Positions 1,087 to 62,960 of a stretch of 64,000 nucleotides of DNA are shown in pieces (positions within the stretch are counted from its first letter, which is position 1; each line of letters begins with the position of its first letter). The translations under genes were made by a program, and so were the position numbers. The notes under the pieces are model-generated. The model was not told where the DNA came from and made no database searches. It saw nothing but the letters and a program-made list of their open reading frames with translations. The stretch spans positions 89,590,001 through 89,654,000 of the forward strand of contig OZ024746.1 of assembly GCA_964016885.1 (NCBI GenBank), given 5' to 3'. This stretch comes from Eledone cirrhosa. Taxonomy: Eukaryota.

Positions 1087-1297
1087 AGGAAAAAGTATGA
1101 CCCCGACGGCAGAGCTCAAGCCGTGTCGACAGCTATTTCTGGACTAAATTGGAGTTTAGTCCAGAAATAGCCGTCTAAACGGCTTGAGTTCTGCCGTCGG
1201 GATCATACTTTTTCCTATTTCCCACTCTACTACCGTAAGTATTGAGTATTCTGGTGCATTAAGGTCCATCTGGTTCCTTACCACAATTCCTTTGTTA
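1087..1297 (+). mobile_element. Non-autonomous fold-back element, family A (palindrome plus ~80-nt tail), between TA runs
   Basis: Inverted arms ~1087-1149 and ~1156-1217 are followed by the tail CCCACTCTACTACC...CCTTACCACA. Homologous copies lie at 6892, 19283, 30250 and 62722. Confidence 0.8.
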
Positions 1298-1571
1298 TAT
1301 ATATATATATATATATATATATATATATATATATATATATAATATATATATAATATATATATAATATATATATAATATATATATAATATATATATATAAT
1401 ATATATAATATATATATATATATATGATATATATATATATATATATAATATATATATATATATATATATAATATATATATATATATATATATAATATATA
1501 TATATAATATATATATATATATATAATATATATATATATATATATATATATATATATATATATATATATAC
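1296..1571. repeat. (TA)n microsatellite
   Basis: Directly visible. It generates spurious YI-repeat ORFs. Confidence 0.95.
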
Positions 1572-2732
1572 ACGTTTTGAATTTCCGTGCATCAGAATAT
1601 ATTTACTTCAAAATGTGCCATGAATAAAGAATATTTAGGAACCACGTAAAACTAACTAATGAAGGATTAGTGGCGAAAATGTGATAATAGTTACTAAGGT
1701 ACTAAGTTCAAACTCTAAGCTGTCTGAACCTGGCAATTGCATGTATACACTGTTAATGAGTGCGTGTCATCTGATAGATGCCTTGTTTGAATCGCCGTAT
1801 GTACCTCTGCCATCTTTTTACTGTCTCCTGGTTTTCCGTACTAGATTTTCTCAAGTATGATATATATATACCGTCTTGAGAAAACGTATTAATATTTCCT
1901 ATGCATTATACAGTTACGCTGTGGCACATATGCTGCTACATTCCAAAACATGTATATTTTCCATAAAGAGACGACCCGACTCAATGTACAGTCTATGCAA
2001 ATTCAATGTAAAATATGCAACATTAAAAGGAACGTAGATAATAAACCGCTTCAGGTAGATTTGAAACAACTTCACATTATTTTATGATGGCATCCACAGA
2101 TGAGGAGAGTAAAGAAAATAAGATAAACTCATGCGCATGAATACAATACATATTTACTTCTATTTCGTAAAGTACAAAACATATATACTAGTCTACAACT
2201 AACCTCAGAAAAAAGCATTGATTTACAATGCAACGTGTCATTGTCTACAATATATAATAATTGTATATTGAATTTTTCGACATAGCATAAAACATACCGA
2301 GTTACTTTGTATTTACACGGAAACAAAAATCGTGACGAAAACATGAATTATGTATTAATGAAATTGGAAATTTACGCTTTAGAGCTCGTCAGAAGAATTG
2401 AATTTACAGTCAGGCATAAAGTGGACCTGATTTCCTTTCATAGATGATAATAAAGATATGACTTTTATCTATTTCCTAAACTGCCGTTATTTGTTTCCTT
2501 TTTGGTTATTTAAATATGTTCTTTAACATTACAAGCTACTTGTTTAATAACATATTGATGTTATCACTGTAATATATAGTAATGAAATCACTAACTTTCC
2601 ATACTTTTGGATAGATTTTTATATTGAGTTTAAAATACGTTGCGGGTGGCATGTCTATGCATTGAGGAACTTGAGTTACCTCGTATAATAGAAATGTTGT
2701 ATGATATCGTTTGTGTCATGTATTTGGATATT

Positions 2733-2836
2733 AATAATTGTTTCTACTTTAGGCAATTACCCAGTGCATTACTGGTACTTTATTTTATCGACCCCGTAAG
2801 GATGAAAGGCAAAGTCAACCTCGGCGGGATTTGGAT
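2733..2836 (-). mobile_element. SINE family S1 fragment
   Basis: AATAATTGTTTCTACTTT...CTGGTACTTTATTTTATCGACCCCGTAAGGATGAAAGGCAAAGTCAACCTCGGCGGGATTTG, a sequence repeated many times in the window. Confidence 0.75.
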
Positions 2837-2885
2837 ATTAATAATAAATGAAATACAGTTGTCCCTCTGTATTGGCTGGTGTTAC

Positions 2886-3190
2886 GTTCCTAGAGTACCA
2901 CGAACAGTGAAACACCTCGAATATTGAAAGAGGTCTATAAAAATGCCTATAAGCGTCAAAATATAACGTAAAATATAAAATTAAAGAGGAAGCGTCTAAT
3001 GCGAAGGGGCGTCCAATAGTCCGGCATGTACGGTATATTTTTATTAATAATTTAGTGTTAAAAAATGTTGTCACAAAAAAGGCTATAAAAAAATCGCGGA
3101 AGATATTGATTCTGCGAATATACGGGGGATTTCCACGAACGATAATTAGAAATGTCCTAAGGAAAATTCCGCGAATGCCGAGAGTACATT
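2886..3190 (-). mobile_element. Interspersed repeat, probably a Helentron/DINE-1-like non-autonomous element
   Basis: Clearly similar to 37473-37790 (AAAATGCCTATA..CGTCAAAATATAACGTAAAATAT; TAAGGAAAATTCCGCGAAT.CCG.GAGTACA). The class call is inferred from the subterminal inverted repeats of the 37.5 kb copy. Confidence 0.55.
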
Positions 3191-3514
3191 GTATTAGCGT
3201 CGAATGTTGTACTTAGTAGCGGCGTTGATATTCATTTGGTGACAATTAAATAAAACAATATCGTGGATTTGTATTTTAAATTATACATATGTCAGTTGAA
3301 GTTTATTTCGACTGAAACTTATGTTTCAATTTCTATTTTAGTGAGTATATAATACTTTTTATTGTGTTTTCAAATTTCATGTGCAGACAGAAACACTTTC
3401 ATTTCCGAATCCATATGCTATATTCATTTTGTTATCTCAATATCTAACAAAATGTAGGAGCCGGTGTAAAAAAGCAACACATACACAATCGTTGGTATAG
3501 TTCAAATATTTAAT

Positions 3515-59934: not shown

Positions 59935-60330
59935 TTGTAATTGCCACCTACCTGAAACCTGTCCATTGCATAATGAATGTATGCAGTCTAACCTGGTTTA
60001 CCAATGCACGGTCGAATCAGACAACCAGAAGTGGTATTACATCGGAGCGACTGGGAATACATTTAAAGCTCGTTGGTATACACATCGTTATGCAATGAAA
60101 CATTCGCTGCATCGTTATATAACTACAATTGCGAACAAGACCTGGCAACTGAGGGAAAGTAACCATCAATACACCCTGAAGTGGAATAAATTATCGAACG
60201 CGCCTGCATATCGGAGTGGTATGAGAAGCTGTCGGTTTGTGACCTTGAACTGTCCACATTTTGAGTTCGAAGAATAAGTTACTCAACAATAAAATCGAAA
60301 GATCAATTTATTGCAACCACAGACTTAAAG
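59935..60330 (+). pseudogene. PLE GIY-YIG endonuclease fragment
   Basis: CNCHLPETCPLHNECMQSNLVYQCTV...YYIGATGNTFKARWYTH...LKW...APAY..G.RSCR. Confidence 0.8.
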
Positions 60331-61135
60331 AAATTTGTTCGCACTACAAGTGCAAATCGAACCCTTAACCTCCTACTACCACCTGACAAACTGCATATAC
60401 TAAGACTTTCTACCCTCTTATTGAATCTAACCCCTTTAATTACCCACAGTAACCAATACTTATGTCCCTCTCTCCTCCTTCATTCCTTTTTTTCTTTTTT
60501 AATTTTCTTCTTTACTTCTTTCTTCTCTTCCCCCTTTTTTTATATATATATATATATATCTATACCACCCTCCCCCTCTCTCTCTCTCTCTTTCTTCCTC
60601 CCACTCTAAACAATTTAATTCTCGTTAACTCCCTACACTGTAAATTTACGACATCAAGTCTACGAATCAAAAGTGATCGAAGAATCCTTAGATCTTTACC
60701 CCTCCCTCCATCTCCGTTTGTCCCTCTACTTCCTAATTCTTCTCCTCCTTCCTCTCTCTCTATACTAGTAAATACGATAAAAAAAAATTTTTTTTTATTT
60801 ATATAAGAATCTTTTACAAGTAACTTATTGATTAGTTTCAATATTTGGAGGTGAATAACAGTTATTATGGAGTGGCTGCTATTTGCAGTATAGCGATATA
60901 AGGTTGCGCTTACCAATGAAACGGCCGTAAATACCTGGATACAATCCTTTTTTAATGCTTACCTGTGTTTTCTCTTTTATTGTTTATAGTCCAAGATTGA
61001 ACGGGATTTACTAACAAGATTGTTGTAAACTAGTGGAGTTACCACTAATCGAACTAGATTCCAATAAGCGAATTTCTGCTTTCCTAACTATATATATATA
61101 TATATATATATATATATATATATATATATATATAT

Positions 61136-61509
61136 ACAATATTAAATAAATGGAAACTATATTTATAAAACGATATTTATTTCATTATATATATTTCAGG
61201 GATATCATATTAACAATATGCTATGCCTTCCTCAGACAAAATACAATATAAACAGTTTTATAGATAAATAGATTCGACATACCGTAACAACATCTACTTG
61301 CATTTGAGAAGGTTGATTTTGTCTGAGGAAGGCATAGCATATTGTTAATATGATATCCCTGAAATATATATAATGAAATAAATATGGTTTTATAAATATA
61401 GTTTCCATTTATTTAATATTGTAAATATACTCCAAATATTTGTCGAGTGCTTTTATATCAGTTATAAATATTTACTAGTTGTAACACAACAATTTAAATA
61501 TAACTTTCT
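61136..61509 (+). mobile_element. Fold-back element, family C, with HHR
   Basis: Arms 61136-61243 and ~61316-61423, with an unduplicated tail 61424-61509. Lies between TA runs. Confidence 0.8.
61318..61377 (+). ncRNA. Type-I hammerhead ribozyme (family C), with an inverted copy at ~61182-61241
   Basis: TTTGT-CTGAGGA-AGGCATAGCATATT GTT AATATGATATCCCT-GAAA-TATATA-TA-ATGAA, then AATAAA. Stem I is weak (G-U pairs). Confidence 0.7.
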
Positions 61510-61849
61510 ATATATATATATATATATATATATATATATATATATATATATATATATATATATATATAAAGATCAGAGCAAACAGCACGGACACTCTATC
61601 TCAAAATTATTTTTGAAAAGCATTTAGAAATGCGCAACCGGTAAAAACTTAAAAACTTAAAACCACAACTGAATACTAACCCATACAATCACTAATACTC
61701 TTTTATTCCTAATTAAACCATTTTTCAACTGTGAACAATTTGTCAGCATTTTCTATTCCGTTTACCTATATATATATATATATATATATATATATATATA
61801 TATATATATATATATGTGTGTATGTGTGTGTGTATATGTATATTTATTA

Positions 61850-62712
61850 TTGCTATTAGAATTAATCCATAGATTCAATCCTAGATCTCATCCCTATAAC
61901 TGTTTTAAATAATGAACTATTAATGAGCACTATATATTACATTATATTCAATGATCTAACAAAACATTACCAGACATGCATTTAAACCTATTAGAAAACC
62001 AGATTATTAATGAGATTTCTTATTCGAAAATAAAATTCCCTACAGGTAAAACTTCATTCTGACCACTCTAACACAATACATTACTTACACACATTTTATT
62101 ATTTTCTTACCTATAGATTATTTTATCTAAATTTTACTTTTCTTTGGTTCCATCTATATTCCTCTACTTGTTCTATTTTTAGAACAAATTATTTTTCTTG
62201 AACAAAGAAATAACAAATATTTAGGATTGTTCTATACTGTTCTACTAGATATAACACACTGATATCTACACCCCTTTTCCTCCAACTTTAATCTTCCTTG
62301 ACCGTTCGCAATTTTCTATACAATCTATCTAAATTCCTTTACACTCACAACTTTCTTTGCCTTTCTTAAGGGTCCTTCGATACCTCATCCCCTGACTGCT
62401 AATTTATTCATCTACTACTACCAGCTTTTGATCTATATTGCCCCTTCCTATTTTTACTATTGGTCAATCTCAAACTTGTTCTTAAAAGGTTACTTATTCA
62501 TACATGTGTTTATATTCTACAATAAACAAAACTCATTATTTCTGAAGACGGCGGGTAGGGAAGACGTATGTATATTTTCTTACTTTGATAACTTGTAATA
62601 TATTTTACATAGATCAATAATAGAACCCCAGAAACGATCGTAAAATAATGAGTTTTACAAAGAATTACCCGTATCTTGTTTAATTTCATTGTTTTCACTA
62701 TTTGTATTATAT
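61850..62712 (+). mobile_element. Family D non-coding element (~850 bp)
   Basis: Homologous over its length to 54273-55445. No ORF; HHR near the 3' end. Confidence 0.8.
62531..62653 (+). ncRNA. Hammerhead ribozyme with long stem II (family D)
   Basis: ACTCATTATTT-CTGAAGA-...-GAAA-CGATCG-TA-AAATAATGAGT, with a perfect 11-bp stem I and a GUA triplet. Confidence 0.78.
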
Positions 62713-62720
62713 ATATATAT

Positions 62721-62960
62721 ATAACGAAGGAGTGGTGGTAAGGAACCATATGGACTATAACGCAACAAAGTACTCAATACTTAGGGTAGTAGATTGGGTA
62801 AAGTATGACCCCGACGTTTTTTGGGGTTCTATTATTGATCTATGTAAAATATATTACAAGTTATCATACTTGTTCCTATTACACACTCTACTACCCTAAG
62901 TATTGAGTACTTTGGTGCGTTATGATCCATCTGGTTCCTTACCACATTTCCTTCGTTATA
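62721..62960. mobile_element. Family A tail palindrome with a captured 45-bp neighbour segment
   Basis: 62721-62800 is inverted at ~62878-62960. The spacer contains the exact reverse complement of 62586-62630. Confidence 0.8.

Follow-up and report, generated by a model that had tools for sequence, protein, structure and literature searches.

A duplicated bulged hairpin predicts the two insertion ends of Hydra-clade Penelope-like elements in Eledone cirrhosa

A small bulged hairpin recurs shortly upstream of TA runs throughout a stretch of 64,000 nucleotides (nt) from the genome of Eledone cirrhosa (assembly GCA_964016885.1, contig OZ024746.1, forward strand, positions 89,590,001 to 89,654,000; hereafter the window, numbered from its first letter). 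Which elements carry this hairpin, and what could so short a motif do at such a place? Analysis of the window, the rest of the genome and metagenome relatives ties the hairpin to Penelope-like elements (PLEs), in which a defined, covarying motif occurs twice per element and predicts both insertion ends within a few bases, across families that include a candidate passenger without an open reading frame (ORF).

The motif consensus is RCTC-helix-TY-GAGY-RCT, a bulged hairpin of 20-30 nt in which the near-fixed parts are limited to CTC/GAG, the first bulge T and the downstream RCT. A preliminary description of the locus had considered the outer ACTC/GAGT helix and a two-nucleotide pyrimidine bulge as fixed. 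This is correct for CTC/GAG and the first bulge T, whereas the outermost pair covaries and the second bulge base varies. The former is A-T in 14, G-C in six and mixed in none of 20 matches from evenly spaced genome stretches, in addition to T-A in the second hairpin of a family termed B; the latter gives TT in 52, TC in 19 and TA in four of 77 metagenome strings.

The occurrence of the motif is not due to chance. The genome comprises 3.0 Gb and is TA-rich; an unbiased sample of 60 evenly spaced 10-kb stretches, searched with a pattern that makes no demand on inner pairing, yielded the above 20 matches, compared to seven in reversed sequence. The first (TA)4 lies 35-100 nt 3' of the motif in 17 of the 20, compared to 5.9% of random positions, showing that the motif is not placed at random with respect to element 3' ends but is tied to ends at TA. 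A literal count over the whole genome (43,344 matches, and 55,408 for the reversed-pattern control) is uninformative, as the control is higher and the count is inflated by coding sequence of long interspersed nuclear elements (LINEs), which accounts for part of the matches. An abundant LINE coding stretch (loci L003, L007, L010, L012, L013, L017 and L023) matches the pattern and has neither hairpin nor TA run.

Read-through copies enter a Hydra ORF at 13 of 20 loci in family A and at all 15 in family D. Family C (735-742 aa) and another family of 763 aa each possess a single ORF with YRDD in the reverse transcriptase (RT) and YVGST/YIGAT in a C-terminal GIY-YIG domain, joined by a linker bearing CxCX5C. 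RWR or RWK, plus DKT, are present in these two families and in families A and D, the proteins of which were examined over the N-terminal 450-520 aa. Over the stretches compared, families A, C, D, F, G and the 763-aa family share 38-60% protein identity; they are therefore distant relatives, and not the unrelated sequences that they had been taken for. Judged from these sequence features, the motif is a signature of Hydra-clade PLEs, and families A, C and D are their 3' ends. Autonomous, ORF-bearing Hydra elements have the motif as well. The assignment to the clade follows from the protein motifs and architecture features, the protein tree described below being composed of metagenome proteins only. 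Searches against Pfam gave no significant match for the Hydra ORF proteins, and a search of solved structures found no relative at a useful E-value.

The host elements also display (TA)n insertion, an inverted 5'-truncated copy and an optional tail, and short elements follow the layout (TA)n, inverted arm, direct arm, motif, tail, (TA)n. In 34 of 43 metagenome loci, a hammerhead core pattern is located in the pLTR on the motif strand, 69-104 nt 5' of the first motif copy (copy 1). By eye, the family A hammerhead has a U3-A8-type core, a type already described (PMC4209133), and the putative ribozymes at loci L261 and L263 (family A) and L101 (763-aa family) resemble this variant with a long stem II. 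Rfam models gave the hammerheads no score in 10 own-genome and 20 metagenome loci, and no match on the motif in the same numbers of loci, at E up to 1 in the metagenome set. Several other readings were abandoned. A 257-nt non-coding tandem as the nature of family A is ruled out by the 13 loci leading into the Hydra ORF; the notion that the 763-aa family lacks the motif was wrong, since copy 1 is present there with an inner part of 29 nt and TG as the bulge; and Helentron/DINE, twister and selenocysteine insertion sequence (SECIS) readings were dropped once the ends were tied to Hydra ORFs.

Conservation of the hairpin was evaluated on 77 metagenome Hydra loci retrieved via a Hydra alignment. 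Without a pairing demand, the pattern has 89 matches in 33,304 flank bases, compared to 14 when the opposite strand is searched and 28 over 155,465 bases within the ORF range. Among 77 distinct strings, inner pairs 1, 2 and 3 are paired in 71/77, 46/65 and 35/42, compared to 58.1, 28.5 and 16.0 upon shuffling, values reached by none of 5000 shuffles; pair 4 is paired in 21/37 and pair 5 at chance level. On a protein tree of 48 of the 77 loci, chosen for usable flanks, copy 1 keeps its pair 1 intact in 42 of 43, with seven changes on the 5' side, eight on the 3' side and only eight of the pair, and the respective changes are 13, 10 and 14 for pair 2, and 10, 9 and 12 for pair 3. In a 46-row alignment, which was hand-picked and leans toward the structure, 98.4% of cells pair, with a covariation score of 0.484 against 0.175 and none of 500 shuffles reaching it. 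Covariation is thus found in the larger set of 77 loci, where the inner helix changes its sequence and keeps pairing, as the preliminary description had noted.

The motif is also widespread among Hydra elements. It is present within the 5' 200 nt of 36 of the 48 metagenome loci with a complete N-terminus and 90 nt or more of upstream sequence, compared to 6 of 541 ORF windows; a covariance model trained on 46 copies, six of them from the window, gave strong matches in seven (two being training rows) and weak matches in two of the remaining 12. In the published consensus sequences (PMC8557442 supplement), it was seen by eye in coral Hydra-2_Amil and in sea-cucumber Hydra-1_Ajap (twice) and Hydra-2_Ajap, as a variant in copepod Hydra-1_Crog, and weakly in Hydra-1_Amil. 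Literal motif words match seven times in that whole supplement, four at Hydra sites and three elsewhere without a hairpin by eye. Altogether, the covariation, the association with ends and the presence in autonomous PLEs support the earlier proposal of a conserved cis signal at PLE ends.

Beyond what had been described, full elements have a second copy of the motif, both copies being placed in the terminal repeat and 5' leader, in the order hammerhead, copy 1, 55-133 nt, copy 2, AUG. The spacing between the copies is 55-83 nt in 24 metagenome loci and 78-133 nt in eight own-genome families, and copy 2 ends 10-69 nt (mostly 15-28) 5' of the first ATG in 36 loci. In predicted minimum-energy folds (L269:1440-1570, L184:380-510), the 5' half of copy 1 base-pairs with the 3' counterpart in copy 2, over 9 bp for family A, a possible alternative conformation. 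ORF-bearing copies of family C stop at exactly two sites, 7 nt 5' and ~63 nt 3' of the motif, and wherever the upstream repeat continues past the second site, a TATA-like word comes next, then another copy of the motif and the start codon. From this read-through layout, a hidden copy 2 was predicted just past each window end, and it was found in family A (65 matches, control 0), in family D (21, control 0) and also in family B; a generic tandem-motif pattern has 1,576 matches in the genome, compared to 240 for the control.

The two copies predict where the elements end. Among 288 TA-abutting 3' ends of the eight own-genome families, a sample enriched for long ends, 103 lie just 5' of copy 1 (short ends), 176 just 5' of copy 2 (long ends) and nine elsewhere. 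Accordingly, 279 of the ends fall inside two 15-nt windows that make up ~10% of the reference length, within ~12 nt 5' of a copy. The same holds for 28 of 31 TA-abutting ends in the unbiased stretches, and 11 of 15 metagenome breakpoints, a count that omits two loci without a pattern match, lie 0-8 nt 5' of a copy (1.5 expected). TATA or ATAT occurs within 12 nt 5' of copy 1 in 26/41 and of copy 2 in 17/34, compared to 4/43 and 1/36 on the downstream side; TA peaks at -6 in 40 of 75 copies, and at the ends a TATA-like word precedes each copy by ~5-10 nt. Of 41 head-to-head pairs, 32 combine a long and a short end. As ends lie just 5' of copy 1 or copy 2, the PLE tail is the interval between both copies. 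The geometry of the preliminary description has to be revised accordingly: the hairpin seen beside a TA run marks the opposite, short end, in the inverted arm, and copy 2, itself left uncopied, marks the adjoining junction.

The closeness of copy 2 to the first ATG, together with the commonness of TA-rich words in Hydra untranslated regions (UTRs), would also suit hairpins that serve translation control or ribonucleoprotein packaging near the start codon, with the ends falling at the nearest TATA-like microhomology. End mapping has already largely refuted this idea, which we hold to be very improbable: other TA-rich UTR sites are almost unused (the 9 of 288 ends), the enrichment of TATA sits at a constant spacing from the hairpin, and the non-coding family B keeps both copies.

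We consider it fairly probable that the hairpin is an RNA docking signal, and that the RT uses nicked (TA)n as its primer at a site just upstream. The GIY-YIG domain would cut genomic (TA)n on both strands and the protein would bind the hairpin within the transcript, upon which the TA-ending 3'-OH would anneal to UAUA just 5' of the bound hairpin and synthesis would proceed toward the RNA 5' end, away from the hairpin. Since extension would run in this direction from a UAUA 5' of the hairpin, the hairpin that sets the start would not be copied. A long end, with copy 1 and tail included, would result from priming at copy 2, and a tail-less short end from priming at copy 1; two 5'-truncated cDNAs joined head to head would form a palindromic insertion between TA runs. 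Use of a different copy at each end of a break would yield both the tail and the head-to-head inversion. This docking fits the two internal start sites of the Poseidon element (PMC11167929). An extension of it, which we offer tentatively, is programmed twin priming, in which two docking hairpins would load two RTs that prime at telomerase-like UAUA alignment sites, one on either side of a single (TA)n break. If true, twin priming would jointly explain microsatellite targeting, the tail and the inverted head-to-head copy, and would provide a portable tag of 25 nt that writes any RNA into TA repeats.

The same ends might be generated at the DNA level, were the motif read as a hairpin of first- or second-strand cDNA, or as a cruciform, by the GIY-YIG domain, which would cut TATA of the element itself at a set spacing while the insertion intermediate is resolved. 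GIY-YIG homing enzymes cut away from their binding site, the ends lie at TA, the target word of the enzyme, and wobble pairs leave the strand unfixed. Covarying inner pairs of free sequence, loops of up to ~70 nt and an asymmetric bulge, however, need a single-stranded fold and not duplex readout, and cDNA would have to be made beyond copy 2 and then trimmed. The tail has been ascribed to endonuclease-mediated resolution (PMC8557442), and an earlier result cited in PMC11167929 holds that the Penelope tail is needed for endonuclease recognition of plasmid DNA, but in the sole in vitro PLE system both ends are RT start sites (PMC11167929). A DNA-level role appears unlikely to us.

An RNA 3'-end processing signal, by which cleavage or termination would end the transcript immediately 5' of either copy and its UAUA end would be primed LINE-style, would predict the same two ends and the same TATA, and the motif sits beside a hammerhead, in a region already processed as RNA. 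The motif is, however, only ~20 nt long with few conserved bases and a variable offset of 5-11 nt, and we know of no small ribozyme that resembles so short a motif with a variable offset. The lack of an Rfam match in the loci searched also counts against processing, which by itself would leave the pairing of long with short ends unexplained. In addition, Poseidon primes internally on uncut RNA (PMC11167929). We therefore regard processing as quite improbable and retain docking as the preferred interpretation.

Several observations weigh against docking at a conserved hairpin. Isolated hairpins are weak (-1 to -6.5 kcal/mol), and regions of 111-131 nt fold no significantly better than shuffled sequences (z 0.8 to -1.7); a protein would therefore be needed to hold the hairpins. 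Copy 2 pairs less tightly, its second inner pair being formed in only 18 of 33, with T-T in 11. G-U and C-A combinations number 11 to 11 over the distinct copies (12 to 3 in the metagenome set alone), and at such parity wobble does not single out the RNA strand. Three of the 48 eligible Hydra loci have no copy by pattern or covariance model, and none is evident by eye in the Hydra-1_Obim consensus, as given in the PMC8557442 supplement. Nine of the 41 head-to-head pairs are other than long and short (four long and long, two short and short, three long and other). In family B, none of 28 was a TA-abutting short end, the sample being skewed toward long ends. Finally, a Neptune-like PLE family makes two discrete 3' ends at TA without the motif.

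This Neptune-like family is abundant in the genome, targets TA and has open frames of 775 aa with DKG and no RW[KR]; a fragment lies in the window at 47881-49040(+), and hammerhead-like cores are found at 48863(+), 52894(+) and 52810(-). Its upstream repeat contains an internal (TA)8 shortly 5' of the ATG (locus L063). No RCTC/GAGY motif was detected in the 3' region among the loci listed, nor at the ends of five longer loci, and the family was thus rejected as the partner of the motif. The suggested link of the signal to PLEs accordingly holds for Hydra-clade ends, and not as a general feature of PLEs.

Family B consists of a non-coding unit of 616 nt, observed in tandem array (L313; G000:C1:229452076-229455525), in which the longest open frames are 72 and 53 aa and no hammerhead core pattern was found. 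It bears both hairpins and ends 8 nt before copy 2, the latter with a T-A outer pair and a long inserted AT-rich hairpin, and has a B-box-like GTTCGATC. Copy 2 was found for the subfamily of the window copy at 36087 only, as pattern searches in a B-related subfamily gave irrelevant matches. We suggest family B as a candidate passenger of Hydra PLEs, resembling short interspersed nuclear elements (SINEs). Another apparently non-coding family has two motif-like copies and no downstream ORF match (L240, L246, L248 and L251), and a U6 small nuclear RNA match of 110 bits lies near family A and B copies (L026:525-629, minus strand).

In the window, the covariance model found 13 sites at E <=0.05, three of them absent from the preliminary description, and the motif is present at all places cited there. 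TA runs begin 48-87 nt 3' of the cited copies, in agreement with the ~50-90 nt stated. Family A is represented by copy 1 motifs at 1224-1247(+), with an inverted arm to ~1085 (short end) and a long end at TA 1296; at 7012-7035(+), within a complete small insertion at 6891-7087(+) that comprises an inverted arm (~6891-6947, short end) and a direct arm of the 3' half of the hammerhead, motif, tail and long end; at 19403-19426(+), with the short end at ~19282 and the long end at TA 19475; and at 62885-62908(+). The last has a decayed head-to-head partner at 62772-62795(-), the end of which is also long; this partner and another decayed copy at 30300-30323(-) are two of the additional sites. Copy 1 of family B lies at 36087-36111(+), within a window copy of the unit at 35739-36198 and with a long end at TA 36199; a further window copy of the unit is at 54002-54189. 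B-related copies 1 are located at 47691-47716(-) and, decayed, at 30135-30159(+).

The family C insertion at 61137-61508(+) has an inverted arm reaching the short site (~61137-61279) and a direct arm (61316-61508) with a hammerhead (core at 61323), copy 1 at 61429-61448(+), tail and long end; a C-related copy 1 at 28635-28654(-) has an inverted arm to ~28980 (short) and a long end at TA 28569. The copy previously placed at 47344 does exist, but its start was set 5 nt inside; in true register it is copy 1 of family D at 47339-47362(+), decayed, with inner TACT/AATA and a long end at TA 47416. The third additional site is copy 1 of family F at 38473-38497(-), with a hammerhead core at 38601(-) and a long end at TA 38414. 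A weak model match (E 0.24) at 36563-36594(-), which has a GCTC/GAGC outer helix and a TA run ~60 nt 3', probably belongs to another family.

A decayed ORF-bearing Hydra insertion spans 58505-61088(+), with an RT fragment (58765-59529), a GIY-YIG fragment (59900-60277), an inverted arm to the short site at 58505 and a direct arm to the long site at 61088, that is, one short and one long end. Its copy 1, at 60988-61039(+), is degenerate and long-looped, as judged against the intact copy in locus L101. Other Hydra-type GIY-YIG fragments, of different families, are located at 42688-43077(+), 55634-56089(-) and 57838-58308(+). Very long (TA)n arrays flank many insertions, e.g. 18758-20476 and 25120-28575. 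A LINE-type RT ORF lies at 20568-22466(-) (Pfam RVT_1, E 2e-30), with upstream frames to ~24500 that by eye are apurinic/apyrimidinic endonuclease-like. An Rfam scan of the window gave only repeat-driven microRNA-model matches among the 150 of 214 matches listed.

As to the origin of the optional tail and the inverted terminal copy of PLEs, the tail has been ascribed to endonuclease resolution (PMC8557442), and two internal RT starts have been demonstrated with their signal left undefined (PMC11167929). Tails and inverted copies themselves were already described (PMC8557442, PMC3846280), but the duplicated cis signal predicting both Hydra PLE insertion ends is apparently undescribed: no description of the motif or its duplication was found in the searched literature, including PMC5737381 and a preprint on retrozymes in the parts available, subscription papers and Repbase notes lying outside the coverage. 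Likewise, the word 'hairpin' is absent from the main text of PMC8557442, and no such motif is described in the sections covered. The motif may serve RNA-templated insertion into TA repeats, and provides an annotation marker for the ends of Hydra PLEs and their passengers, on the order of 10^5 in the genome as extrapolated from the evenly spaced stretches.

Compared to known systems, the elements share with the Hydra clade of Craig et al. 2021 (PMC8557442) RWK/RWR, DKT, CxCX5C, the C-terminal GIY-YIG, hammerhead, (TA)n, inverted 5'-truncated copy and optional tail, whereas their tails are ~55-130 nt in length compared to the 30-40 nt given there. The Poseidon PLE of Anolis (Frangieh et al. 2024, PMC11167929), which in vitro begins reverse transcription at two internal RNA sites bounding the tail, is similar in having two start sites 3' of the hammerhead and an AT-rich target cut on both strands. 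However, initiation in Poseidon occurs inside one AC-rich stem-loop within the ORF, with no homology to the target (PMC11167929), whereas the elements here have two conserved bulged-hairpin copies in the 5' leader, with TATA complementary to the target at each end. Non-LTR (long terminal repeat) retrozymes (bioRxiv 10.64898/2026.07.22.740005) resemble family B in that the latter is a non-coding tandem unit which a PLE apparently mobilizes, but the family B unit is without a hammerhead core and shares the hairpins instead.

By analogy, family B also appears to borrow hairpins in the manner of other non-coding passengers. The hepadnavirus epsilon, the R2 3' UTR and the 3' stem-loops shared by LINEs and SINEs recruit RT in cis, and such stem-loops can be borrowed by non-coding passengers. 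Epsilon primes inside its own bulge with a protein primer, and every LINE or R2 insertion contains a copy of the respective signal, which specifies a single end, whereas the signal here is located 3' of the start and specifies both ends. Telomerase RNA likewise has protein-bound elements that flank its template, and we propose, by analogy, that a protein-bound RNA element beside a short alignment region complementary to the DNA repeat would fix the start of synthesis here as well. Compared to telomerase RNA, the signal here comes in two copies, and synthesis covers a long stretch, with no reiteration shown so far. Since the RTs of PLEs are the sister group of TERT (PMC8557442), a flanking RNA element next to a repeat-complementary word bears on the evolution of template positioning.

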